A stretch of 36,605 nt of DNA from Vulcanimicrobiaceae bacterium (GCA_046262595.1 JBHEMM010000027.1:1-36605), one strand, 5' to 3'; numbered from the stretch's first letter, positions 4,540-36,033 are shown. Numbers and translations: made by a program. The notes: generated by a model not told the origin, from the sequence alone.

Positions 4540-4615
4540 TGGAGCCGACGGCCGGACTCGAACCGGCGACCTGCTGTTTACGAAACAGCTGCTCTACCAA
4601 CTGAGCTACGTCGGC
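4540..4615 (-). tRNA. tRNA-Thr(CGT)
   Basis: Reverse complement GCCGACGTAGCTCAGTTGGTAGAGCA-GCTGT-TTCGTAA-ACAGC-AGGTCGCCGGTTCGAGTCCGGCCGTCGGCTCCA: 76-nt cloverleaf with encoded CCA. Confidence 0.98.
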
Positions 4616-5302
4616 ATTCCTGATTTCGGGCTCTCGCGTCGCGCGGTACGTGTGGTACCGGTGTGGTGCCGACATTCTGCACACGCGTTGTAAGTTTGCG
4701 CGCCCTGGCCCACCTTCAACATGCCCCCACTACGTCCTGGGGCAGCGCGCCCGTTGAACGGGCGGCCGCGTCCTGAGCGCCTTGAGCGCATGCAAGCACA
4801 TGCGTTGTAAGCCATCCATTCCACGTTGCCGGCCGGCAATTTCCAGAAGTTTACTTCCCCCCGCCGGTAATACCGAAAAGGCCGCCGAGGGCAAGGTGCC
4901 GAGCTGCTGAAAAACTGCGCGATCGCGTTACGGCATACGTTAGCATGCGCGCCGATCCGTTGTTACGGAATTATAAAGGCTTACTGGCGCGGCGGCTGAG
5001 TTCGACGGTGACTGGCAGCTCATCGATTCGGAGGTCGCTCACCGGATAGGCGGTATCGAGAGTCAACATCAGTTTGATTGACGGACCCGTTCCCGGCATG
5101 CCGCCGCCCGCTACGATTCCGGTCACGCGTGCGCCGACTCGCGCTTTGGATGGAAAGATAACAGTAGCTTCTGTCCGAACGCGGTTAAATCCGAACTGAC
5201 AGGTCCTAAGGAGCTGGAGGGAGCCGAGGGATGCCCTCACACCCGGCAGAGCACCCCAACCGTAACGGCACGCGGTGTCCAAAGAGTGTCGCGGCGAAGG
5301 CC

Positions 5303-6701
5303 TTACACTGCCGGCCGAAGACCGGCGGTCAAAAGCGCCGGATAAAGGCCGTTGCTCAAGCCGGATACGCAATTGCGTCCACTCGCCTTTGCCTCATACA
5401 GTGCGCCGTCTGCTTTTTCAAAGATTTCAGCCGCTGAGAGAAGCACCGGTAAACCCGCGCAGGCGGCGCCTATACTGACCGTTAGGCCGGGTCCCGCTGC
5501 GGAAGCTCTATGTGGGATTTTCAGCGATTCTACGGATCTGCGCAGGCGCTCGGCGACGCGAGACGCTTCTTGAAACGCGATCGGGCTCAACAGAACCACG
5601 AATTCTTCGCCGCCATAGCGTGCGATAAAGTCAGAAGAGCAAAATAACGAGGATTGCAGGGCACCCGCGACCCTTTTCAAGGCAAGGTCGCCCGCAGCGT
5701 GGCCATACGCATCGTTATATGTCTTAAAATGGTCAATGTCTATGATGAACAGGGCGAAGGACGTTCCGCCGCGACGCCCCTCGTCGATGCGCTCTTGTAG
5801 TGCTTCTTGAAAGCCTCGACGGTTGCGTATTCCTGTAAGGGGATCGGTTAACGTCATCTTCGACAAGTGTCGGAATAAAACGTAAATTTCGCCTAGCAGC
5901 GCGATGACAACGGTGCTCGAGGTGAACAGTGTTTCCGTTTTCCCGACATACCAACTTAGCGTATACCGGGAAGGCGCAAAGCCGTTTAACCCGGCGTCGA
6001 GCCCCATTGCTAAGAGTGAGACGAGAAGCCAGTATTGTAATGAGGTCGGCGCCTTAACGCGGCACAACACAATTGCGATGACAAGAAAAGCGAACAGAGC
6101 TAGGCCGGGGGCGGCAAGGTGCGTAAATAAGGGCAGAAAACGCCCGTGTAACGCGAATCTCGGCAAGGATGCGCGACTAAAAAAGAGCGTGGTTGTCAGA
6201 ACGATCGCTATGAGGAAACTTGCAGCCAACGTTCGTCGTAGGGCCATTTTGCGAATCGCCTCCGGCAGCCGCATCTTCACACCCGGATCGAAAGATAAGC
6301 AAACGCCGATAATTGCCGGAAATAGGCAATGCCAAGCGGTCCAAAGCCAGATGGAAAACTGTTCCATTCCCGGTGTCAGTTTTAGCGGTAGAAACACTCC
6401 GGGGAAAGCTGCCAGGTAAGGGATCGTGAAAAGGCCTGTTGTTGCATATGCAGCACCGATGAAGAGAAACGCCGTTTTGCCGGCGGCCGCGAACTGGCTA
6501 AATAAGAGATAAGCCGTCAATCAGATCGGCGGCCGCCCACAACGTAGCGCAGATGGGCATGAATGCGGGCGAGGGCGCTTCGATAGCCGTCCCAAAACGA
6601 ATCGCAATAAGGGTCGCGCCAATGAGCCCTGCGGCGACAAGCAGTGCTGCGAAGCGTTCGGAGCGCCCGGCATTTTGTCGCAACCGGAGAGGTGCGAGCA
6701 C
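5303..6701 (-). pseudogene. MASE4-type membrane sensor fused to a GGDEF diguanylate cyclase, with a +1 frameshift near 6521
   Basis: TDPLTGIRNRR, IDIDHFKTYNDAYGHAAGD, RYGGEEF, ADGALYEAK. Upstream ORF 6498-6701 (…PAFMPICATLWAAADL) joins LTAYLLFSQF if one base is removed (CTG-A-TTG). GTG start overlaps the upstream TAG. Confidence 0.8.
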
Positions 6702-7756
6702 TACGCCGCGGCGTCTTCGTGGGCCGTCTTAAAGGCGAGAATCTTCGGAAGCGCCTGGTGAAAAGCGCGCACTATTTCCGGATCGAAATGGCTACCGGAT
6801 CCGGCGTCAATCTCGGCCACGGCACGATGTGTCGGCCAAGCCGTTTTGTACGGCCTATTGGATGTCAGCGCGTCAAAAACGTCACTGACGGCACAGATCC
6901 GGCCGCTTACGGCGATCTTCGTTGAAGCCAGGCCAAACGGGTAACCGGTTCCATCGAACTTCTCGTGATGCGAAAGCGCTATCTCCGCCGCCATTTGCAG
7001 AAGGTCCGACTCGCTGCCTTTCAGGATCTCGTGACCTATTATGGTATGTTGTTTCATGATTGCCCACTCCGCAGCGTCCAATTTTGCCGGCTTGAGCAGT
7101 ATCCGGTCGGGAATAGCGACTTTGCCGATATCGTGCATCGGCGTCGCCATGAGCAAAAAGTCACACTCGCTATTTGAGAGGCCGAGGGCGCGCCCGATCT
7201 CGGCGCTAAAGTGTGCCATACGCACGATATGCATACCGGTCTCATTGTCGCGGAACTCGGCGGCGCGCGTTAGCCGGTAAATGGTTTCCTTCTCGCGTGC
7301 AACGATCCGTGCAGTGGCGCTTTCAACCTCCGCCGTCAGAGAATATGCCCGGTCGGCCAGCTTTTTCTGCGCGCTCACTAAGGTCAGCATATTTTGTACG
7401 CGAGCGCGAAAGTCGATGATGTCCACGGGCTTTGTCAAAAAGTCTGCAGCGCCGAGCCCCAGTGCTTGGTACCGGATGTGGCGCGCCTCTATCGCGGTGA
7501 CCATGACGATCGGAACATCTTTATTGCGAGGCATTTGTCGAAACGCCTCTATGAACTCCAAGCCGTTCAATGCCGGCATATCATAATCGACGATGACCGC
7601 GTCGGCCTCGTTGACCTTGCTCCATTCAAGAGCATCTTGTGGCAGCGAGAACGGCACGCACGTCGCGGTTCTGAGGTCGGCAAGTGCGCGCTTATAGACC
7701 TTGAGGTTCAACTCGTTATCGTCAACCATAAGGACGGTCATCTTGCGCGCTTTCAT
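6701..7756 (-). CDS. Response regulator with HD-GYP c-di-GMP phosphodiesterase domain (RpfG-like)
   Basis: REC domain (MVDD, IVDYDMP, FLTKP), then RDNETGMH, MHDIGK, HHEKFDGTGYP, DVFDALTSNRPYK. Confidence 0.95.
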   Translation of the reverse strand: MKARKMTVLMVDDNELNLKVYKRALADLRTATCVPFSLPQDALEWSKVNEADAVIVDYDMPALNGLEFIEAFRQMPRNKDVPIVMVTAIEARHIRYQALGLGAADFLTKPVDIIDFRARVQNMLTLVSAQKKLADRAYSLTAEVESATARIVAREKETIYRLTRAAEFRDNETGMHIVRMAHFSAEIGRALGLSNSECDFLLMATPMHDIGKVAIPDRILLKPAKLDAAEWAIMKQHTIIGHEILKGSESDLLQMAAEIALSHHEKFDGTGYPFGLASTKIAVSGRICAVSDVFDALTSNRPYKTAWPTHRAVAEIDAGSGSHFDPEIVRAFHQALPKILAFKTAHEDAAA

Positions 7757-10056
7757 CGCGTGCCGACCATCTGTATCGCGTCGGCAAGCATCGTATAGGC
7801 TCGCCGAAGGCCGACGTAGTCCACCCGCTCCTCCGTTCCGCCGCTCAGCACGAGCGAAGTATCAGCGGTCTTTTGCGCCAGCGCAACGGCCCCAATGTTG
7901 CCGCACGCGCCCTTCAACTCATGTGCCGCCGCTAGCCGGCCTTCAAGGCTGTTAGCAAATTCCAGCCGGGCGAGCGATTGATCGAGAACGGGGAGCGCGC
8001 CGTCGAGAAAATCTCGCATTTCCTCGACGTTACCGTCAAACAACTCGTTAAGCCGGGTCAAGTCAAGGGCGCATTCAGGGGCCGCGCGCGCCAATGACAA
8101 GCGAAGCTCGTCAATCGTGACGGGCTTGGATAAATAATCGTCCATTCCCGCGGCGAGACAAGCCTGTCGATCCTGCGTAAGCGCGTTCGCAGTCACTGCG
8201 ATGATCCGCGCATGCTTTCCCGTGCGCGCCTCGGCTTTACGAATCGTGCGGGCCGCTTCGAACCCATCCATCTCGGGCATCTGGCAATCCATTAAAATGA
8301 TGTCGAACATGCCGTCCCGGGTAGCCTCGACGGCCTGTCTTCCGTCCGTCACGGCTTCGGCGGCATAGCCGAGCTTTCGTAGTTGGCGAAGCGTGACGTC
8401 AAGATTAATTGCGTTGTCCTCGACCACAAGTATCCGCCGGTTCACGAAGCTTTTTTCCCCAAGATTGGTCGCGGGACCGGCGACGCCGCTCATGCCGACA
8501 GCCGGGTGCGCTATGCAGTCATACAGCAGTGACTGCATTACCGGCTTTGTCAGGTATGCGGCACATCCGGCCGCGACTGCTTCACGGCCCTTGTCCGGCC
8601 GGTCATACGCGGTGATCATAATCAAGCGGGTTGCAGCGATATCTTTATTCGCCTTGACGAGCCGGGCGAACTCGATACCATCCATGTACGGCATCGCGAA
8701 ATCAATCAGGGCAATTTCGTACGGATCCCCGGCCGCGGCGGCAGCCTCGATCATCCTATACGCCGTCTCGGTTTCGCCGGCGATATCGCCGCGTACATTC
8801 CACGAACGAAAGTAGCCGGCGTAAATCTGTTGCGCGATCGGATCGTCGTCGACGGCAATTCCGCGCATTTGCTTCAAATCGGGCGGGCGGTGTTCGGCGT
8901 CGGTCGCATGTTTAAAGGCCAGCGAGAAGGAAAACGTTGAGCCGCTTCCCGTTTCGCTTTCTACAGCGATGCTGCCGCCGAACAAATCAACCAGACCCTT
9001 AGAAATGGAGAGCCCAAGGCCCGTTCCGCCGTACTTCCGGGTCGTCGAGCCGTCGGCTTGTCTAAATGGCTGAAACAGCGAGGCGTGCTTTTCGGGTGCG
9101 ATGCCGATTCCCGTGTCTTTGATGGAAAACTTTACGACGGCGGTTTCCGGAGTGCGGTCTTCCAGAATGGCATTGATGACGACCGAGCCGCTATGCGTAA
9201 ACTTTAAAGCATTGCCGGCAATGTTCACCAAGATCTGGCGTAAACGCCCGGCATCGCCCACTAATACGGCCGGTATCTTCGGGTCCACGTAGGTCATCAA
9301 CTCGATGCCCTTAGCGGTTGCCTGCGGAACAAAGAGACGAGCGGCGCTTTCTACGAGGGTCAGCAAACGGAAATTGCTTGTGTCCACATCGACGCCTTGG
9401 GCTTCGATCTTCGAAAAATCGAGAATATCGTTTATGAGATGCAGCAAGGCCGCGCCCGACTCGAGAACGGCCGTAGCACATTTGCGCTGGTCTTCATCAA
9501 GCGGCGAATCGAGTAACAATTCGGCCATGCCGATTACAGCGTTCATGGGCGTGCGGATTTCATGGCTCATGGTCGCTACGAATTCCGATTTTAAACGGGA
9601 TGTCTCGACGACTGCCTGAAGTTCGGCCTGTGCCAAGCTTCGCTCAGTGACGTCGCGAGCAATACTGACGATCGTCTCCTCGCCGTCAATGATCGCACTA
9701 TGAGCCGACATTTCAACGCGAAACGTACTTCCGTCGCGGCGCCGGTGAGTTGATTCGAAATAGGTGCCGAACTTTTCCGGATGGTCGAGATACGCTTCTA
9801 TACTTCGCGTTTCTGTTTCCGCGAGGATTGCCTTTGAGCTAAGGCTTATAAACTCGTCTTTTGTGTACCCGTATGCTTGTGAAGCCGCGGCATTCGCTTC
9901 TAATATTTTCCAGTCCCGGCGGCGGACGAAAAGGATAATATCGCGGCCTTGCTGCGCTAAGAGTTGATATTTCGCTAACTGAGCCGCTCGTTCACGCATC
10001 TCCGCCGAAAGCAGATCGATATGCTCACTCGACGTGGGGCTGGAATGGCTATCCAC
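7753..10056 (-). CDS. Cytoplasmic hybrid histidine kinase: PAS-HisKA-HATPase-REC-REC-Hpt
   Basis: PAS ([11 protein letters not shown]…HRRRDGSTF…ARDVTER), [30 protein letters not shown], two REC domains (DFAMP, DCQMP), Hpt AHELKG. ATGA overlap with the HD-GYP gene. Confidence 0.95.
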
Positions 10057-10224
10057 GGTGTACCTACTTCGTTGCGCGCCCGCGCGCAGAGTCTCCGGGG
10101 ATCAACGTACTGCAGCCCGGAAGGGAGAGATGCCCTCCACACCCGCGGAGGGCATTCTTATCATAGGGGAGCGCGGTGTCCGCAGGGTGTCGCCACGGTT
10201 GCGATGCGGTGTCGTAAACGGCGG

Positions 10225-12813
10225 CTAGCCGGCCAACAACTCAGCAAGACGTGCGGAAGGCGCGGCCCGGAGCTCCTCCTGCAGAACGCGCCGGTACCCC
10301 GCAAATGTGCGCCGTGCGGCGTCGGTATTTCCCTCGCTCATGTTCAAGCGGATAAGCAACTCCCATGCCGTCTCATCGCACGTGTCGAATTCGAGCATCA
10401 TTTGCGTCAAGGCGCGGCCCGCTTGGAAGTCCGCCCTGCGAATAATGTCGCGCGCCAAAGCGCTCGACAATTCGACTTGCAAATTCTGCAGCATCGCAGC
10501 GGTCGGGATGAACCATTCGTACTCGTTGAGGTGCGCCGGAGCACCTTTTGCGAGACGGCCGTACATCTGCACAAGCGCCTCCCGTTGTTCTTCAAGCACT
10601 GCCGGTTCCTTCAGCGCGAGTTCGCAGGCGCTTCGAATGTTTTGAAGCTCGCTTCCAACGTCGGCGCCCAGAACGTACGCGTTGTTTACAAAGCAGACCA
10701 CTCGTGCGTCCCCGCACTGGAGCCGTGCACGCCGCACAGTCATTTTAAGAGCGTTCACCGCCTGACCCGGCTCTTCGTCAGGCCACAGCATTTCGCAAAG
10801 TTCATCGCGTTCGACGGATCGGCTGCGTACCGAGAGCGCCGTCAGCAAATCGAGCACTTTGCGTGAGACGTTTACCGGACGACCGCCTCGTTCCACGGTT
10901 CCGCCCAGCACGTTAACCACGACGTCGCTTTCTTCGGGCGCTTGCTCATGCAGCGCGCGCATGTGCCGCACCAGCGCGCGGAACGGCTGGTTGCGCGCCG
11001 GCAGCTCTCCGGCGCGCATCTGAGAAATCGCGCCGCATACCGGCAGAAGCTCGGTGATTTGCGCCAGCGCCGAAGCCTCGTCCAGCAGCTCGGCCTGGCG
11101 TTGCGGAACCAGCGGCGCAAGCGCAATGCGCATTCCGATGCGCAAAGTCAGAGCACCCGAAACATCTGCTGCCTCGATGCCTGCCAAGAGGCGGACCCGC
11201 GCCTCAGCGGCGGAGCCGGCATAATACGCTTCAACAAGCAATTGCCGCGCACGCAGGTATGGCTGGCCGAAACCTGCGCATGCGGCAGGAGGGCAGCCGG
11301 CGATCGCTCCGTATTGAGCGAAGGGACCGACATCGTGATCGCGCGCCAAATCGCGAAGCATGCTGCGGGCGCGATCCGCGTTTGCCGAGTCGCAAGCGAA
11401 GACCGCTCCCCCGATAAACTCCGCCAGTGCCGCCGCCTGGGCCCAAACATCGCCGCTTTGGCCGGCAATCTCTATGGCGTGCGCGTGCAAAACGAGCTCG
11501 GTCTGCCAATTGCCGTTCCCGCGCGCCCTAGAGATGCCGATCATGTTGAAGACGGTCTGGAGAACGTAGGAATTATGAAGCCGGTCCGAAACTGGCCGCA
11601 ACGCAATTGCCGCCTCGATTAAGCGCCCTTGCAGCGCATATCCCGTCGCGCGGTAACCGCAGATCGCAACATCGGCGACATCCATCGTCGAGGGAGCGGG
11701 AAGCTCTCCGCCGGGATAGATCTGCTCCAAGAGTGCGTCGGAGCGCACGAAATCGCCCGCTTCGATGTAGAGAAACATCAGCAGGCCGCGCAGCGACTTT
11801 ATTACGACGGGTTCTTCGCTATCTTCCACCATGTCCAGGAGCGCCTCGGCTTCGGCAATCAGAACGTGGATATCGATGCGAAACCGGCGCACACGCCAAG
11901 AGCATATCCAGACGCGCGCGTTCGTTGCGATTAAGGATTCCGGGATCGTCTTAAGGACGGCATCGAGCTCGACGGAGGGCCGTAGAATGTGCTCAGCGGG
12001 CGCTCGCAGCAGGTGTTCGAACGCCGATTGGGCGTTTCCGATATTGCTCGCGACGAGCGCCGCGGAGATAAAGGCGCCGCCGCGATTAAGGCCGTCAATG
12101 GTCCCGAGCGCCACGTTCGAGAGGCTTGGGGAGCAATGTTCCCGCCCCGCTGCTGCGACGAGCGGCGTGGCTGAGAGCCGCCCGCCGGCGTACGCGAGCA
12201 AACCGCGTTTGGTCAGATTCCGAAGAGCAGCTTCAATGTCGCACCCAGGTAGCGCTAAGTGCAAGATGTCTCTTCGCGAGTCGCCGATGGAAATGATCGT
12301 GACGAGCACCGCGCGATCGTCGGGAGACAGCACGGAGATGATGCGCTCGTACACGTGCCGTTTGAGCGGAAGGTACGGGGGCGCTTCCAGGTTGCGCGCT
12401 ACCGATTCGCCTTCGTTGCGCAGCAAGCGCCGCGCCAGCGAGACTCCTGCCGCGAAGCCGCCGGATATTCGCTGCACCTCTGGCAGAAAGTCCGACGAGA
12501 ACGCTAAGCCGTCGAAAAATCGCGCGATCTCTTCGTGGTCGAATGCGAGGTCCATGTCATCGAGTTCACACACGTGCACCGGTGCGCTGCTGCCGAACGG
12601 CGTCGGCATGCGCGGGTCGGACGCGGTCGCGATAACGAGGCGGCCTTTGGGCGGCATTGAAAGCTGCGCGATAAATTCGCGGGCCTCTGCGCTCGATATC
12701 TCGTCGATTAGGGGCATGACGCTCGCGCTTGCGGGACTACGCAAGGCGCCGAGCTGCTGAAGAAAGCGGGAGCGTCCTGAACCGGGCTGCCCAACGACAT
12801 AAAGAAAGCGCAC
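10225..12813 (-). CDS. Large MalT/STAND-like transcriptional regulator with C-terminal wHTH plus BTAD (SARP-type) domain
   Basis: Degenerate Walker A GQPGSGRS, MalT-like DLAFDHEEI…SGGFAAG, helical repeats, VERDELCEMLWPD…LKMTVRRAR, DTCDETAWELLIR…LQEELRAAPS. Confidence 0.8.
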   Translation of the reverse strand: MRFLYVVGQPGSGRSRFLQQLGALRSPASASVMPLIDEISSAEAREFIAQLSMPPKGRLVIATASDPRMPTPFGSSAPVHVCELDDMDLAFDHEEIARFFDGLAFSSDFLPEVQRISGGFAAGVSLARRLLRNEGESVARNLEAPPYLPLKRHVYERIISVLSPDDRAVLVTIISIGDSRRDILHLALPGCDIEAALRNLTKRGLLAYAGGRLSATPLVAAAGREHCSPSLSNVALGTIDGLNRGGAFISAALVASNIGNAQSAFEHLLRAPAEHILRPSVELDAVLKTIPESLIATNARVWICSWRVRRFRIDIHVLIAEAEALLDMVEDSEEPVVIKSLRGLLMFLYIEAGDFVRSDALLEQIYPGGELPAPSTMDVADVAICGYRATGYALQGRLIEAAIALRPVSDRLHNSYVLQTVFNMIGISRARGNGNWQTELVLHAHAIEIAGQSGDVWAQAAALAEFIGGAVFACDSANADRARSMLRDLARDHDVGPFAQYGAIAGCPPAACAGFGQPYLRARQLLVEAYYAGSAAEARVRLLAGIEAADVSGALTLRIGMRIALAPLVPQRQAELLDEASALAQITELLPVCGAISQMRAGELPARNQPFRALVRHMRALHEQAPEESDVVVNVLGGTVERGGRPVNVSRKVLDLLTALSVRSRSVERDELCEMLWPDEEPGQAVNALKMTVRRARLQCGDARVVCFVNNAYVLGADVGSELQNIRSACELALKEPAVLEEQREALVQMYGRLAKGAPAHLNEYEWFIPTAAMLQNLQVELSSALARDIIRRADFQAGRALTQMMLEFDTCDETAWELLIRLNMSEGNTDAARRTFAGYRRVLQEELRAAPSARLAELLAG

Positions 12814-13059
12814 CTCCGGACCGGTCGCACGCTTCAGTAATTTATCTCGCGTTAAAATTCTTTCACCGGAAACCCACCTTCACCAATCATGCATCGCAGA
12901 TATACGACTTTACTTAAGAGTAACGTTAGCGAGCCCTAGGCATGAAGCGAGCAAAAGACACCGTTTTGACGGCAGCGGACACCGGCTATCGTTGGGCGTT
13001 CGGGCACGTACTCTCCTAAAACACCGCGCTCGGTTAAGTTATGGCGCGAGGAGAGTCTT

Positions 13060-13509
13060 ATGTTCAAGCGCTTGGCGCCTTTGATGTTTTTCGCGGTTGC
13101 CGCTTCATGCTCGGGCGGCCGCACGACACCTGTCCCGGGCGACACGTCGCTCGCTGCCCAAACAAGCACGTGGGCCGGTGTGTTTCGCTATCAGCCCGCA
13201 GCGCTTACGCTTGACCTTCTTACGCCTGGCATGCAGTTTTTCTACGTGGATACCGTGCCCGTCAACGGCGTACAGCCCGACGCGCAAATGTTTCTCAGTG
13301 AATTTGCGGCGGCAAACGCCTCCGTAGTCACCGGCGCATGCAGCGGCATTGCGACCCTTTCCTACGCTCTTATCTCTCCGAACACGTTCTCGGGGCAACA
13401 AAACGCGACAGTCGTTATCTCCGCCTATCCCCGCGCATCGGGCGATTGCACCCAGACAGTCAACCTGGGCCTTACGGGAGCGGCGCCATTTTCGCTTCAC
13501 ATTCAATAG
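13060..13509 (+). CDS. Hypothetical lipoprotein
   Basis: GAGGAG RBS, signal peptide with lipobox VAASC (Cys17), beta-rich mature part with two further Cys. Confidence 0.75.
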   Translation: MFKRLAPLMFFAVAASCSGGRTTPVPGDTSLAAQTSTWAGVFRYQPAALTLDLLTPGMQFFYVDTVPVNGVQPDAQMFLSEFAAANASVVTGACSGIATLSYALISPNTFSGQQNATVVISAYPRASGDCTQTVNLGLTGAAPFSLHIQ

Positions 13510-14033
13510 ATCACGGCACAAACGCGTTGCCATTGATCCCGGCTGCGCACGGGTCGATTGCGTCAACGCATTCCTTTCGCATCAGCGCATTCGTTAAACG
13601 ATACGGCGAGAAATCGGCCGGGTTAATCCGCGATGCGCTCGTAGCGCCCGCCGCGGATAGCGGCGACGCGCTTGCGGCAAAACAGCTCATCGACAGCATC
13701 GGCACCGAAACGGCGGCGATGCTGCCGAACGTCATCAACGCGTATTACTGTCGCTCGAACGTGGATGCGCGAGTGTAGCACCGATGCGCGCAGAGGCGCA
13801 AACCGTGCGCTTGCTTCTGTTGCGCCTAGTTTTCCCACACCCGGCATGCATGGCCCGTTTGGGCTATTACATTGCGGCTGCGCCCGGGCCCTGCCGCGCT
13901 CATGCGATTCGCATACAGCCCGTCTTTTCGTGCGTGCCGCGGGCACGCGCAACAGCGTCTTACGATGGTGTTTCCTCGCCATGTCCGGTTAGGACCGGCC
14001 GCACAGCCGGATCGCCGAAAAGGATCAAACACC

Positions 14034-14204
14034 ATGATTCGACGGATTTTTCTCGGTTTTACGTTCGCCGGTTTGTTGATCGCCGCGGCGGCTTGCACTT
14101 CGCCCGGCACACGCAGCCAAGGATTTTTACCGCATGGCGGGCGGATAGCGGGCGATGCAACGCCGCCGCCGCCCGACTCCGGCGGCGGAATGCCGGGTAA
14201 ATAG
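14034..14204 (+). CDS. 56-aa secreted lipopeptide, candidate signalling-peptide precursor
   Basis: AAAGGA RBS before ATG 14034. MIRRIFLGFTFAGLLIAAAA-C(21)TSPGTRSQGFLPHGGRIAGDATPPPPDSGGGMPGK. Confidence 0.8.
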   Translation: MIRRIFLGFTFAGLLIAAAACTSPGTRSQGFLPHGGRIAGDATPPPPDSGGGMPGK

Positions 14205-14216
14205 TCCCACTGAGCT

Positions 14217-15791
14217 ATGCGGCAGCGGGTTATCTTCGTTTCGCTGCCGCACCTAGGCGTTATGGGACGCGCAGCAGCTGGAAACAGCGAGGCAGCAGCA
14301 CCGCTGGCTCGTGAAATGAGTGCGGCGCTTGCGCAGGCGCGCGTTTCCGATGCGGCGGCTGCGTTCGACGCGAAGCCTAGCGACGAGCCCGATGCGGTGC
14401 TGCTGCGCGCGCGCATCGCTTTAAAGCGGCTTGCGCCGCGCGAGGCGATGCAGCTGCTGGTGCGGCTCAAGCACCTCGAACCGCATCGCGACGCGCAGCG
14501 TCTTATGTTGATGGGCGTTGCCCAGTCACGCGTCAATCAATTCGAAGCGGCCGACAACTACTTCGATCGCGCCGCTGCGGTAACGCGCGGCGACCTCGGC
14601 GTGGAGCTCGCGTATTGGCGCGGCCGGCGGTTTCTTCTGGAAAACCGCTTGGCCGACGCGCGGCTGCAACTGGATGCCATGGCCCCTGGGAATACCGCGG
14701 GCGCCCAAGCCATGGCGGCGACGCTCGAGAGCGGCATAGCGATTCAAGCCGGGCGCTTCTTTGAATCGGCCGGCATTTTAATGCGCCTGATGGAAACGCT
14801 CGAAACGGCGAACAGCGAGATCGAAACGTGGATCTGGTCGCTGCACACACTCTCCGTTTTAGCGCGCGAGCTGGATTATCCGGAAGTGCGAACGTTCGTG
14901 AAGCGGCGCGCGCTGGGCGACCGGTGGACGGCGGATTTCACGGTCAACAAGTTTCAAACGCAAAAGGCAGTCGCCTGGTGCTACGCATTAGAGGGGGATT
15001 ACTTCAACGCATTCCGCCTCTTGAAGCTTGCGCGTTCCGCCGCCCCATCTTCGGCGTGGCAGGCGATGATTTGTCTCGATCGGGCGTATCTCGCGCGTTG
15101 CTTAGGCGAACAGCGCTGGTCGCGGGACGAGTTGGCCGAGGCGGACGAGATCCTGATGCGCATCGACTGGCGCAAGACATCGAACGAAGAGCCCGTCGCG
15201 CTCCTCATCGCGGCCGAGCTGTTCGCCGCTGTCGACGCGGCCCGGGCCCTGAACTACCTCTCGCAATTCTCGGAACTTCCGCCGGCCTTGAACCCGCTGC
15301 TGCATTTCCGTACGGATCGGCGCTTGAGTGCGCAGGCCGACTATACGTCAGGCTTGGTGCAACTGGAGCTCGGCAACCGGCAAGCGGCCATTGCGAGCTT
15401 TAAAAAAGCGTGGAGCACGTACAGCGATATCCGCTACGATTGGCGTGCCGGACGCGCCGCCGTTCGGCTCTTCGAAACAACCGGCGATGAAACGTGGCTG
15501 GCACGCGCGCGCGAGAAGCTGAGCAATTACAGCGCGAGCTGGCTTTACGATGAACTGAACCGCTACGGTAAGAGCGAGACGCTGAGTTCACTCCTCACGC
15601 CGGCGCAGGAGCACGTTTTCCGCATGCTGTGCGAAGGACGCACGACCCTGGAGATGAGCGCGCTGACCGGGCGCAGCCGCTTCACCATCCGAAATCACAT
15701 CAAAGCGATTCTCAAAGCGTTCGGGATGCCGAGCCGCCCGGCATTGCTCGTGGAAGCGGCGCGGCGCAACTTGATCGGGCGCTCGCGCTAA
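14217..15791 (+). CDS. TPR-like helical-repeat protein with C-terminal LuxR-type HTH
   Basis: C-terminus LTPAQEHVFRMLCEGRTTLEMSALTGRSRFTIRNHIKAILKAFG. Upstream TPR-like helices (LMGVAQSRVNQFEAADNYFDRA; YTSGLVQLELGNRQAAIASFKKA). No REC domain or Walker motif. Start may lie slightly downstream. Confidence 0.85.
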   Translation: MRQRVIFVSLPHLGVMGRAAAGNSEAAAPLAREMSAALAQARVSDAAAAFDAKPSDEPDAVLLRARIALKRLAPREAMQLLVRLKHLEPHRDAQRLMLMGVAQSRVNQFEAADNYFDRAAAVTRGDLGVELAYWRGRRFLLENRLADARLQLDAMAPGNTAGAQAMAATLESGIAIQAGRFFESAGILMRLMETLETANSEIETWIWSLHTLSVLARELDYPEVRTFVKRRALGDRWTADFTVNKFQTQKAVAWCYALEGDYFNAFRLLKLARSAAPSSAWQAMICLDRAYLARCLGEQRWSRDELAEADEILMRIDWRKTSNEEPVALLIAAELFAAVDAARALNYLSQFSELPPALNPLLHFRTDRRLSAQADYTSGLVQLELGNRQAAIASFKKAWSTYSDIRYDWRAGRAAVRLFETTGDETWLARAREKLSNYSASWLYDELNRYGKSETLSSLLTPAQEHVFRMLCEGRTTLEMSALTGRSRFTIRNHIKAILKAFGMPSRPALLVEAARRNLIGRSR

Positions 15792-15828: not shown

Positions 15829-17289
15829 ATGCGCTTAGACGTCAAAGGCGCGGGCGCCTTGCCGCACAGTTTACTGCTCGGCACGGCAGGGGTTGCGGCA
15901 TTGTTGTGTGCGGCGGCGGTCGTACGCTGGGACGTTTGGAGTTACGGCAGCGATACGGGAACGTTCGCGCAAGCTATCGCGCACGCACCGCAAGGCTTCT
16001 CCGACGCGATGGAAGGCGGAACGCATCTGCGCTTCCACTTCTCGCCGATACTCGCCGTGCTTTGGCCGCTCGTCGCGCTGACGCGCACGCCGCTCGTCCT
16101 GCAGTTCGTGCAGATTGCGTTGATTCTGTCGTGCCCGCTGCTGCTTGCGCAGCTGCTGCGTCCGTACGTCCCCTCGCCGTGGCCCGCACGCTGCGGATTT
16201 CTCGCGCTGCTGTATCCGCCGCTGCTCGCCGGCGCCTTCTCGGAGTTTCACGAACTCGCGTTTTATCCGCCCCTGCTGCTTGCGCTGTTTTTATCTGCGG
16301 ATCGCGCGCGCTGGGGATGGTTCGCGGCATGTGCGCTGCTGCTGGTTTGCGTTCGTGAAGACGCAAACGTCGATCTCGTGCTTATCGGTGCCGCTCTTTG
16401 CGCGCTGGCGCTCCTGCGCCGTACAACGCTCGAGCGCGGCTTGCTTATCGGCGAGCCGCCCGAAGCCGAGCGCCTGAGTGTAGCCGGCGCCGCGCTGAGC
16501 GTGTGCGCGGCAGGCGCTCTTGCGATCTATGCGTTCGTTCTCTTGCCCCGCATCGGTTCGTGGCCGCCCTCGCACTTTTACGACTACGCGTTCGCCCACG
16601 GGCCGGTGCAGACGGCGCTCGCGCTGTTCACGCATCCACTCGCTCTGATCGCCGCAACCGCAACGCTCGGCCGCGTGACGTATCTCCTGGAAGCGCTCGC
16701 GCCGCTCGCGTTTTTGCCGATCTTCTCGCGCTGGTCGCTTCTTTCGCTGCCGGCGCTCGCGGGGATCTTGCTCGCAAGCGATGGGAGCGTTTGGCGCATG
16801 GGCATGCACTACGAGCTGTTGTGGGCGCCGCTATTGCTGCTCGGCGCGTGCGTGACACTGGTGCTCCTCGTGCGCGCGCGCTCGGAAAGCACCGCGACGT
16901 TGTGGTGGGCAATCGCATGCGGCGCCTGCGTCATCGTTCTTGCGGCGTTCAATCCGATGCACCCGGCGCACTATCTTCGCCTGCAGGCCTTTGCGCATCC
17001 GGCCGATGCGCGGCGCGCGTTCCTTTGCGTCCCGCGCGACGCGCCGGTCGCAACGCACGACGAGTGGTTCGCACATGAAGCGTTGGCGTTTCCGAACGCG
17101 ACGGTGTTAGGCGCCGATCCGGCTGTGTTTCGCGGCTACGTCGTGTACGATCGCGGTTGGCGTAATCCGCTGTTCGAACACGCGCTGCCGGCGCTTGAAG
17201 CGGGTGCGCAGAACGGCGCATTCACGATCGTGTGCGAATCGGGAAGCGTACGCGTGTTGCGCTCTACTTCGTACCGTACAGGTGGATGA
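15829..17289 (+). CDS. DUF2079 family integral membrane protein (putative GT-C glycosyltransferase-like)
   Basis: DTGTFAQ, HFSPIL, EFHELAFYPP, VREDA, GMHY, and many TM helices. Confidence 0.85.
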   Translation: MRLDVKGAGALPHSLLLGTAGVAALLCAAAVVRWDVWSYGSDTGTFAQAIAHAPQGFSDAMEGGTHLRFHFSPILAVLWPLVALTRTPLVLQFVQIALILSCPLLLAQLLRPYVPSPWPARCGFLALLYPPLLAGAFSEFHELAFYPPLLLALFLSADRARWGWFAACALLLVCVREDANVDLVLIGAALCALALLRRTTLERGLLIGEPPEAERLSVAGAALSVCAAGALAIYAFVLLPRIGSWPPSHFYDYAFAHGPVQTALALFTHPLALIAATATLGRVTYLLEALAPLAFLPIFSRWSLLSLPALAGILLASDGSVWRMGMHYELLWAPLLLLGACVTLVLLVRARSESTATLWWAIACGACVIVLAAFNPMHPAHYLRLQAFAHPADARRAFLCVPRDAPVATHDEWFAHEALAFPNATVLGADPAVFRGYVVYDRGWRNPLFEHALPALEAGAQNGAFTIVCESGSVRVLRSTSYRTGG

Positions 17290-33815: not shown

Positions 33816-34441
33816 GTATGCGCCACCGCCACGCATTCCAAAAGGTTGAACCCGCGGGCGAAGGATCGATGCCCGTAATTCCGCGGCGATACGCGTTCGG
33901 CATGCGCACTTGCCAAAGCGTGAGTTCGGGAAGATCGCGCACCAGTTCACGCTGCACCAGCGCGTAGTCGGCTTTGCGCCGGGCGCGATCGAACGTGAGC
34001 AGCGCATCGTGCATTGCGGCATCGGCCTTGCGGTTACACCAAAAATAGTAATTTTGACCAGCCGGCGGTCGTTGATCGCAAGCGAAGTTCCACGTGTCGT
34101 CAGGGTCCGGGCCGAGCGTCCACCAGGCGTCGTATGCGAGCTGGTATCTTCCGTTTGCAAGGATGCCGCCGGCCGATTTCGGCCCCCAAAGCAGCGTCAG
34201 CGGATACGTTTTAATACTTACCGCGATGCCGGCGTCGGCAAGATAACGCTGGATCATCGCCGCCACCAGCGCCGAGCCGTTAATGCCCTGCGGCGAGATC
34301 GCGAACGTCAGCTCGAGCGGATGCCCGTTCTTCGCCCGCATCCCGCGCGGCGTCATCCGCCATCCGGCCGCGTCGAGCAAGCGGCGCGCCGCAGCCGGAT
34401 CGTACCGAATGCGCGCGACGGTGCCGTCGTGCGCCCAACTC
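33796..34441 (-). pseudogene. C-terminal fragment of a family-5 (peptide/nickel) ABC solute-binding protein
   Basis: SWAHDG…YDPAAARRLLDAAGW…KNGHPLEL…IQRYLADAGI…GPDPDD…NYYFWCN…QRELVRDLP…FWNAWRW. No genuine N-terminus in place. Confidence 0.9.
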
Positions 34442-34950
34442 GCGATCGTCGCAACGTTCTTTGGACCGCAGGGCGTGCCCGCGCTCATGCCCGCGCATCT
34501 GCTGCAACGCTATCCCGATCTGAATCGCATTGCGTATAACCAGCGCCCCGTCGGCGCCGGACCGTACCGTGTCGTGCAATGGAAACACGGCGATTCCATT
34601 ACGCTCGAGGCCAATCCGCTGTATTGGCGCGGCAAGCCGCAGATTGCGCACCTGGTGTTCCGCATCATTCCCGATGCGAATACGCGAAAGCAGCAGCTGC
34701 AAACGGGCGAGACGGATGCCTATTTCGACGTGGATCCGCAGTTGCTGCCGCAAGTGCGCTCCGTAAGCGGGGCAAACGTGCTGCTCACGCCGGTGAACGA
34801 CATGCACATCGTTCGCTTCAATTTGACCGATCCGGTTCTGGCCGACGTGCGCGTGCGTCGGGGCATTGCGCTGGCGCTCGATCGGCGCAAGATCGCGCTT
34901 GCGGCCACGCACGGCGCGAGTGTCTTGTTGGAAGGCGATCAGCCGCAAAC
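34442..34950 (+). pseudogene. Middle fragment of the same solute-binding protein, inverted
   Basis: AIVATFF…MPAHLL…PVGAGPYRVVQWKHGDSITLEANPLYWRGKP…LQTGETD…FNLTDPVLADVRVRRGIALALDR…GDQPQ. Confidence 0.9.
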
Positions 34951-35200
34951 GATGGCGCTCGATATGTTTTACGCGAACGCTATCGCTGCGTGGGAACGTC
35001 TTGTCCCAGTAAATGTGGCGCTTCGGCGTGACGGAGGCAATAGCGTGTGGGAAAACTTCGAATACTTTGTGGTGCTTTCGCAAGCGTGGTACGCAGCGCA
35101 TCCCGACGGCACGTATCCCTCGGGCGTAAGGCGCATCGATCTCAAAGATGATCTGCTTGAAGCGGATAACCAATACGTCGCCGTCCGTCAAGCCACGTAA
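34950..35200 (+). pseudogene. C-terminal fragment of the membrane-anchored protein that starts at 36033, inverted
   Basis: MALDMFYANAIAAWERLVPV..LRR….VWENFEYFVVLSQAWYAAHPDGTYP… is unrelated to solute-binding proteins and continues …KRRIIDR naturally. Confidence 0.8.
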
Positions 35201-35207
35201 TACGCCG

Positions 35208-35687
35208 GTGCGTTTGGACGTTTGTAAGACACTCTTGTTGCTCACGCTTGCGCTGAGCGCATGTTCCGGCGGCAGCACAGCCGGCGGTCAAACATTGGTC
35301 TTTACCGGGCTCGCCGGCGAGCCGGACTCGTTGAACCCGCTCGTTTCCACGTCCACCGATCTCTACAACCTCAGCCACTTATACATGTCGCTGCTTGTCG
35401 AAAGCGACGCGCGCGGCCGGCTCGTTCCTGAAATCGCAAGCGCCGTTCCGACGATGCAGAACGGCGGCATCTCGCCCGACGGCCGGACGATCGTCTATCA
35501 TTTGCGCCGCAACGTGCGCTGGCAGGACGGCGTAGCGCTCACGGCGCGCGATGTGCTGTTCAGCTACCGGGCGGCCATCGATCCGCGCAACAACGTCCCG
35601 ACGCGCGTCGGCTACACCGATGTGTTCTCGGTTTCTGCGCCGGATGCGTATACCGTTGTGGTGCGCATGCGACGCCCGTTTTCGCCG
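35208..35687 (+). pseudogene. N-terminal fragment of the same solute-binding lipoprotein, inverted
   Basis: Lipobox LSAC, EPDSLNP, LVPEIA..VPT.QNGGISPDGRTIVYHLRRNVRWQDG..LTARDVLFS, APDAYTVVV…PFSP, then an abrupt stop. Confidence 0.9.
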
Positions 35688-36033
35688 AGCGATCGATGAT
35701 ACGCCGCTTCGCAAATACGCCCAGGTTCTCGAATCTGTTACCCACAAGCATGATCTTCGTGACGAGACCTTGGCTTTCAGGCGTGCGCGCATGCCGGTGA
35801 GCAACTTGATAACGGAATTCGGGGCCTTGCCAGTTCTTTAGCAGTTCTGTGAGAACGAAATTCTGAGCATCGGCGAAAACCGGCGTATTAAAGGCGCGCT
35901 GAACCTCGCTGAGGCCCTCGATAAGATTTGCGCTGCGAGCGTGCCGAAGTTGAAAGAGAGCCGCCATTGCGGTCGCCGCGATAACGAGAAACGTGCCGAA
36001 GGTCGCTAGGGAATTAAAAAGTTCCAAAGACAT
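35688..36033 (-). pseudogene. N-terminal fragment of a membrane-anchored hypothetical protein (DUF4760-like)
   Basis: ATG 36033 after GAGAGG; MSLELFNSLATFGTFLVIAATAMAALFQLRH…GNRFENLGVFAKRRIIDR, after which the frame reads antisense into the inverted segment. Confidence 0.78.

Follow-up and report, generated by a model that had tools for sequence, protein, structure and literature searches.

A Vulcanimicrobiaceae gene pair that is probably a peptide-signalling circuit with an origin separate from RRNPP

A 56-codon gene and the TPR-LuxR regulator gene behind it in a Vulcanimicrobiaceae bacterium form, with a probability that we put at about 0.65, a two-gene feedback circuit for cell-to-cell peptide signalling, in which the peptide would be exported, cleaved, taken up and bound by a MalT-type sensor joined to a LuxR helix-turn-helix (HTH). 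The window, i.e., the whole stretch of DNA analysed, comprises 36,605 nt (GCA_046262595.1, JBHEMM010000027.1:1-36605). The features of the cassette are as follows.

13851-13866, no strand: candidate operator, a 16-bp dyad with 4-bp half-sites and an 8-nt spacer, 167 nt 5' of the peptide ATG
13976-13991, no strand: degenerate remnant of a proximal operator, matched in the alignment by strong dyads from 6 of 8 relatives, scoring 2.7 bits here
14020-14024, plus strand: Shine-Dalgarno-like site of the peptide gene, 9 nt 5' of the ATG, its position kept in relatives
14034-14204, plus strand: precursor peptide gene (P0001, 56 aa), from the ORF translation and homologous ORFs beside related regulators
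14034-14096, plus strand: putative lipoprotein-type signal peptide (residues 1-20) and Cys21, from the sequence pattern and conservation of Cys21
14154-14201, plus strand: conserved C-terminal part, Asp41-Lys56, with the family core from Asp48 (14175)
14202-14217, no strand: second candidate operator, over the peptide stop and before the regulator, the third-best site of the genome (12.7 bits)
14218-14251, plus strand: predicted G+C-rich RNA hairpin between the two genes, without a U-tract, from shuffling and compensatory changes
14262-15791, plus strand: regulator gene (P0002) in the frame that opens at 14217 (524 aa), with Met16 as the probable start (509 aa)
14301-15560, plus strand: TPR-like superhelical sensor domain, residues 29-448, from the AlphaFold model
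15576-15764, plus strand: C-terminal LuxR/GerE HTH, residues 454-516, from the GerE match and the AlphaFold model

An earlier note, made from the sequence alone, had read the first gene as a 56-aa ORF with a good ribosome-binding site and a lipoprotein signal at Cys21. The ORF and its Shine-Dalgarno-like site were confirmed, and the predicted signal has the expected pattern, a basic N-region and then a hydrophobic stretch before Cys21, with Cys21 and Thr22 invariant among the eight closest precursors. Long ORFs that overlap it on other frames (13784-14200, 13826-14536 minus) were taken as shadow frames, and neither Pfam nor NCBIfam gave a match to P0001. The residues Asp41, Pro44, Pro46, Asp48, Gly51 and Pro54 are also invariant in the eight closest precursors, and Asp48 and Gly51 in 20. 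The proposal that DSGGGMPG(K) is the mature signal agrees with the conserved C-terminal tail, but the exact peptide is ambiguous at its N-terminal end because Asp41 and Asp48 are both invariant in the closest clade.

The regulator frame, 14217-15791, is open over 524 aa, and the same note had described a 524-aa protein 12 nt behind the peptide gene; both figures are probably wrong. A 12-bp hairpin at 14218-14251 abuts the ATG at 14217 (z = -4.5, 0/200 shuffles) and is homologous to a hairpin that falls within non-coding DNA in eight relatives, 3 of 11 pairs having changed in a compensatory way. Moreover, the N-termini of close homologues, L002 included, lie about level with Met16, and residues 1-24 of the model have a pLDDT below 50. 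Since the hairpin covers ATG 14217, the regulator probably starts at ATG 14262, which gives a protein of 509 aa beginning 57 nt past the peptide stop. Of 55 same-strand cassettes, 34 have a stem with z <= -2 behind the peptide stop, vs 3 of 55 coding control windows; the stems mostly lack a U-tract. As stems after stop codons are common, the hairpin mainly supports the gene boundary; its role may be attenuation or mRNA stabilisation. Scans for sigma-70 promoters and terminators at the cassette found nothing.

The domain order proposed earlier, TPR-like helices and a C-terminal LuxR HTH without REC or ATPase, is well supported. Profile searches matched TPR_8, TPR_7 and GerE, each under the curated cut-off, and no REC or ATPase family; GerE is matched in 47 of 51 aligned homologues. 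The AlphaFold model (51-sequence alignment, mean pLDDT 91.1) contains only helices over residues 29-448, followed by the HTH at 454-516, and no beta-strand. Among the conserved residues of the sensor are Trp237, Asp261, Arg267, Arg289, Trp318, Arg369 and Arg410. The genome holds a single full-length copy of the regulator.

Short precursor-like ORFs are a recurrent companion of related regulators. We compiled 123 regulator loci, leaving out HTH-only or duplicate loci (L016-L020, L041-L045, L107), partial matches, identical copies and loci with less than 450 nt upstream. A motif-blind filter for ORFs of 28-125 aa with a hydrophobic start and a small-residue tail gave an upstream candidate at 75/123 regulators vs 28/899 long control ORFs from the same genome, and a downstream one at 6/108. 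Curation, which removed four wrong picks and added ten by coordinates, placed a precursor at 89/123 regulators, 63 of them upstream on the same strand, 21 divergent and 5 downstream. In a held-out set of 40 further loci from the phylum sample (20 top-scoring and 20 lower), 23 were positive for a precursor and 17 negative, or 18/34 positive once six loci at least 90% identical to training loci were removed. These counts bear out the expectation that homologous regulators are flanked by short signal-peptide ORFs. The lipid anchor claimed for the precursor agrees with the pattern at the locus itself but is not general: a lipobox pattern is present in 44/89 precursors and absent from 45/89, and a basic N-region is missing in many.

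The 34/123 regulators at which a precursor went undetected count against the signalling reading. They keep nearly the same conserved sensor residues; among 17 peptide-less proteins there was no loss beyond small drops at Glu218, Trp281 and Arg413. In one receptor clade (L009, L027, L028, L030, L031, L032) a 346-aa lipoprotein with DUF4382/carboxypeptidase-regulatory domains precedes the receptor in place of the small peptide; these receptors have an altered recognition helix and no dyad, and are often followed by a GGDEF gene. The peptide-less regulators and the DUF4382-lipoprotein clades therefore indicate that the receptor family does not always depend on such a peptide.

Several further members have unusual architectures. 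A clade of receptors of about 450 aa with closed frames lacks the HTH (L013, L037, L102, L103, L104, L106, L011, L034). Four HTH-less receptors have short, mostly hydrophobic upstream peptide ORFs with a low family-motif score, and in genome G007 a precursor with about seven repeats is followed by three HTH-less receptors in tandem; the clade may be a Rap-like branch acting by protein interaction. P0057 (837 aa) and P0139 (954 aa) have apparent extra helical-repeat regions before a single HTH. The precursor ORFs of L047, L008 and L123 appear frameshifted or truncated, through assembly error or decay, and L047 also lacks an in-frame HTH.

We then consider what the precursors share. An unsupervised search returned an eight-position motif in which Asp and a small polar residue lead into a glycine run, followed by a hydrophobic residue and usually Pro, with an EM log-likelihood of 448 vs 108-121 in eight shuffles, so that the tail singled out by the earlier note is indeed the conserved part. 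The motif score is at least 5 in 78/89 precursors vs 12/1260 short hydrophobic-leader ORFs of the same genome; P0001, which belongs to the training set, ranks first among these 1260, and scoring them revealed no convincing orphan precursor. Among 60 non-divergent precursors the first residue of the core is Asp in 52 and the residue three places on is Gly in 58. The core lies at the C-end, in mid-chain or immediately after the lipobox Cys, at offsets of 14-68 and with a tail of 0-62 residues, and its leaders occur both with and without a lipobox. It is repeated in tandem in 6/89 precursors at a strict threshold, and up to five copies occur in the held-out locus L211. It is thus the core that these precursors conserve, not the scaffold.

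The core also follows the receptor. With rising receptor identity, core identity increases from 0.35 through 0.66 to 0.94 and flank identity from 0.09 through 0.27 to 0.65; at 60-80% receptor identity the values are 0.66 for the core vs 0.27 for the flank, the core baseline being inflated because the matrix that picked the core had been fitted to the same peptides. Core and receptor identity are correlated (Spearman 0.25, 0/300 permutations), core variants and gene arrangements form blocks on the FastTree tree of the receptors, and paralogues bear different cores. The suggested covariation of tail and receptor is thus present in that core variants follow receptor clades, but shared descent explains this too: the two genes are linked, and clade tracking therefore fits co-evolution without proving it.

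A candidate operator emerged when the 150 nt upstream of 78 peptide genes were screened without bias for inverted 4-mers separated by a spacer. The top dyad, TAGC-N8-GCTA, is exact in 33/78 (shuffle mean 0.38; best shuffled dyad 6) and present with at most one mismatch in 56/78 vs 6.2 in shuffles. At the locus itself the 150 nt upstream of the peptide gene contain no match. A matrix built from 57 sites of other loci, with this locus and L002 excluded, ranked 13851-13866 first among 2,413,863 positions of the genome, at 17.6 bits. Sites at the offset of 14202-14217 also occur in L047, L050, L109, L072 and others, and where the peptide gene lies downstream of the regulator the dyad moves along with it (L056, L061, L071, L114). 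A dyad is found upstream of 77/90 close and 5/33 distant regulators vs 2/123 coding controls, in a partly circular comparison, and upstream of 14/21 close held-out regulators. Two things count against the operator: the proximal dyad of the locus itself is degenerate (2.7 bits), and L002 has no site above 11 bits (best 9.3). Among 76 HTH-bearing regulators with an upstream dyad, Thr490 and His494 are present in 76 and Asn493 in 74, and Lys496 is likewise common; several clades in which the dyad is mostly absent differ at recognition-helix residues. This co-occurrence suggests that the regulator binds the 16-bp dyad. The left half-site also resembles a -10 hexamer, so the operator may overlap the promoter and regulation could have either sign.

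The dyad also precedes neighbouring small lipoprotein genes (about 150 aa) and genes for other exported proteins. The strict pattern yields 2-6 sites per genome in five receptor-bearing genomes vs 0-3 in five without a strong receptor match, and 4 of 16 dyad-site loci lie before precursor genes and 5 before proteins with export-type N-termini, which is only suggestive of a wide regulon. The second-best site of the genome (14.0 bits) pointed to C18:41206, a 478-aa exported protein with a copper-amine-oxidase N-terminal domain; as 0/13 orthologous loci have a site above 6.0 bits, this target is unsupported.

Comparison of the receptor model with known structures places MalT domain III first. In the wider search 1hz4 gave Z 23.0 (rmsd 4.7, 330 aligned, residues 117-466), followed by RapI (4i1a; Z 20.9, rmsd 4.6, 329 aligned) and then LGN (Z 20.6). 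Among the top 1000 Foldseek chains, Rap-pheromone complexes came first (Z 21.4, rmsd 6.4, 333 aligned), with Rap and LGN within 1 Z unit of each other, and fold alone is therefore no proof of function. The predicted fold is of a peptide-binding type. Ranking by Foldseek E-value, which gave generic eukaryotic TPR proteins, was set aside. The structural neighbours in the Atlas (TM 0.64-0.79) are members of the same family and TPR sensor parts of STAND, sigma-54, cyclase, kinase and BTAD proteins, and an Atlas feature search gave unspecific TPR clusters only. No RRNPP chain is among the 60 PDB sequence matches listed, in a class of helical repeats that resolves ancestry poorly. In E. coli, MalT domain III senses the sugar maltotriose, which counts against a peptide receptor.

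That MalT is the best match and that the Atlas neighbours are sensor parts of STAND-like proteins would also suit a sensor of MalT/LAL type that lacks the ATPase and responds to a protein or small molecule, with the peptide a mere output, i.e., a lipoprotein target with a job in the envelope. The occurrence of the dyad before ordinary 150-aa lipoproteins and other exported proteins and the regulators without a detected precursor point the same way. We nevertheless regard such an arrangement as unlikely, since it leaves unexplained that conservation is confined to a 7-9-residue core, with variable leader, position and length, and that cores are repeated in tandem and change clade-wise with the receptor.

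Returning to the signalling circuit, its regulator shows the order of MalT and the LAL STAND activators, in which a TPR sensor is followed by a C-terminal DNA-binding domain (PMC6468293, excerpt). The likeness of the sensor is one of fold only, and TPR_MalT is absent among the 25 Pfam families listed for 51 members. Unlike these activators, the receptor has no N-terminal STAND ATPase or arm (no ATPase match, a model without beta-strand) and is paired with a peptide gene, its DNA site is an inverted repeat, and its helical part is longer than that of MalT by about 90 residues at the N-terminus; it does not count as a STAND protein. Given the shared order of sensor and LuxR HTH, the simplest origin would be a MalT/LAL-type C-terminal half without its ATPase.

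The earlier note had proposed an analogue of RRNPP systems with a distinct architecture. The adjacent precursor, the TPR receptor and the C-terminal HTH agree with this, but MalT surpasses the RRNPP proteins in fold. The RRNPP(A) systems of Bacillota (Rap/Phr, NprR/NprX, PlcR/PapR, Rgg/SHP, ComR, PrgX, AimR/AimP) have a small exported propeptide adjoining a cytoplasmic TPR receptor. Common to them and the cassette are a short conserved core that is sometimes repeated, as known for the pheromone copies of Phr propeptides (PMC11343458, excerpt), directly neighbouring genes, a receptor with TPRs (here weak below-cut-off Pfam matches, member-wide TPR matches and a superhelical model) and fold similarity at Z 18-21. 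At 56 aa the propeptide falls within the 10-100 aa criterion of the excerpted PMC10075063, where Sec/SPI is the strict and Sec/SPII the 'relaxed' secretion class; the predicted lipoprotein-type signal would belong to the latter, and predicted SPII substrates are a minority of RRNPPA propeptides (211/2,734; PMC9765709, excerpt). The cassette differs in its C-terminal LuxR/GerE HTH, RRNPPA regulators having an N-terminal HTH or a three-helix bundle (PMC9765709, same excerpt), and in its diderm host outside Bacillota, cytoplasmic TPR peptide receptors being described, in the excerpts cited, from Bacillota and their mobile elements (PMC10075063, PMC9765709, PMC12700828). The receptor, at 509 or 524 aa, also exceeds the 250-500 aa range, a marginal difference from what is a detection limit rather than a biological line. 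No RRNPP-specific Pfam family is among the 25 listed for 51 cassette-receptor members. As we read it, the cassette would work like RRNPP, which does not imply membership.

A parallel in a diderm is the PatX-HetR system of filamentous cyanobacteria, in which a 56-aa Sec-exported precursor is cleaved in the periplasm and a short peptide binds cytoplasmic HetR (PMC12756182, excerpt). By analogy, the cassette would share with PatX/PatS-HetR the short peptide from a 56-aa precursor, the cytoplasmic transcription factor and the diderm host; HetR is, however, no TPR-LuxR protein, and one fixed motif without a two-gene cassette family contrasts with the many clade-specific cores seen here. Because export, cleavage and return take place in this diderm, to call peptide signalling exclusive to Gram-positives would overstate. 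We found no published description of the cassette in literature drawn mostly from outside subscription journals; new for the cassette are the operator dyad, the covarying hairpin with the start revision, and MalT as best fold match.

In the proposed circuit the precursor would be exported, here as a lipoprotein, and cut by a periplasmic or membrane protease before the conserved Asp41 or Asp48. The resulting glycine-rich piece of 9-16 residues would enter the cytoplasm via an oligopeptide ABC transporter and bind in the groove of the MalT-type helical sensor, thereby switching the C-terminal LuxR HTH, the dimer of which would read the 16-bp dyad. As the dyad lies before both the peptide gene and the regulator's own gene, a feedback loop would result, in which the peptide might act by activation or by derepression; the hairpin would keep the peptide message in excess over the receptor message, and the different cores of paralogues would provide several channels per genome. 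It is tempting to go one step further, at odds somewhat short of even, and to envisage an independent invention in which a MalT-type STAND sensor with its HTH lost the ATPase, came to sense exported, partly lipid-anchored peptides and expanded into orthogonal channels on one operator within a single family of a diderm soil phylum. If so, the shared operator could sum several peptide inputs on the same promoters.

Homologue names suggest that the host belongs to Vulcanimicrobiota/Eremiobacterota. Its genome encodes Omp85 and LpxC, and the cultured relative Vulcanimicrobium alpinum has a Gram-negative envelope (PMC9758169, excerpt); the host has an outer membrane. In the phylum sample, with 12 candidates scored per genome, the regulator family occurs in 47/55 genomes of its own family, with 1-12 matches each, and in 0/65 genomes of other families; a separate search gave long matches in 3/5 sister-family genomes, a tally that includes the unpublished genome G011, on which no further conclusion depends. 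At E <= 1e-30, 570 clusters (50% identity) match the regulator, a count without taxonomy or context. Seven of 62 genome loci stand under record titles of other phyla, as naming artefacts or transfers. The genome also encodes LspA, M50 proteases, 11 near-full-length SBP_bac_5 matches and five sedolisin-type prodomains. LspA, family-5 binding proteins and proteases are permissive rather than specific, such transporters and proteases being common in bacteria.

The outer membrane hinders exchange between cells, and about half of the precursors are, by their lipobox pattern, lipid-anchored; in 18 divergent cassettes the core comes right after the lipidated Cys and is followed by a long Pro/Ser/Thr tail, from which release would be awkward. 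The core might then be a ligand that stays in the producer cell, where unexported precursor or pieces from envelope proteolysis are read as a monitor of export or of the envelope. We rank this second among the alternatives and consider it improbable, as rapid core diversification and up to 12 receptor matches per genome better suit kin-specific communication and peptides of 9-16 residues could pass porins.

A large receptor-peptide family in an outer-membrane phylum that abounds in poor, acidic and cold soils would add peptide communication to a lineage for which hardly any regulatory biology has been described. The cassette also hints at a second origin, from STAND sensors, for TPR peptide receptors. 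Its many natural cores are candidate orthogonal sensor parts, and with operator, hairpin and start codon predicted it lends itself to a direct test.

The flanks of the cassette are variable. Among 1526 neighbouring ORFs of 122 loci (about 3 kb each side) no cluster recurs in more than 14 loci, the commonest being a 150-170-aa lipoprotein (14/122), a SpoIIE-type phosphatase (13/122) and a GGDEF protein (10/122), and the recurrent neighbours include no transporter, protease, exporter or modifying enzyme linked to the cassette. That the ORF is a multi-core RiPP precursor and the regulator its pathway activator is very improbable: such precursors do resemble a leader with repeated cores and LuxR-family regulators often flank biosynthetic clusters, but neighbours here reach 14 loci at most, and 0/22 recurrent neighbours scanned is a RiPP-modifying enzyme or dedicated exporter.

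A lipoprotein family of 145-175 aa without a Pfam match recurs beside cassettes, often with an upstream dyad (L021, L022, L023, L062, L064, L082, L088, L090, L143, L147, L149, L160, L168, L177, L181); in L088 a core-like stretch directly follows the Cys, as though the lipoprotein were fused to a precursor. Within the window, the match to a family-5 solute-binding protein at 34087-35702 is broken into three segments that lie on both strands, and one segment contains an internal stop, which suggests that this gene, close to the end of the contig, was rearranged or misassembled. A DUF2079 membrane protein gene (15829-17289) follows the regulator on the same strand after 37 nt, a synteny seen only in L002/L046 and L047.

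On the other side, a tRNA-Thr(CGT) gene at 4540-4615 is separated from the peptide gene by 9.4 kb, vs about 300 nt upstream in L046 and L047. The intervening block, 4616-13800, has a G+C content of 0.587 vs 0.627 for the genome, finds no nucleotide match in these closest relatives and encodes a lipoprotein and a BTAD regulator of 862 aa alongside a MASE4-GGDEF protein, a REC-HD-GYP protein and a hybrid histidine kinase; positions 4891 and 12741 carry a 24-nt direct repeat (92%). The block is likely an acquired signalling island. A link of the cassette itself to mobile elements was rejected, a tRNA gene being nearby in just 4/60 loci. The 862-aa regulator (10225-12813, minus strand), with a C-terminal winged HTH and BTAD, and a 149-aa lipoprotein that belongs to no known family (13060-13509, plus strand) have divergent genes and form a second pair of a large regulator and a small lipoprotein.
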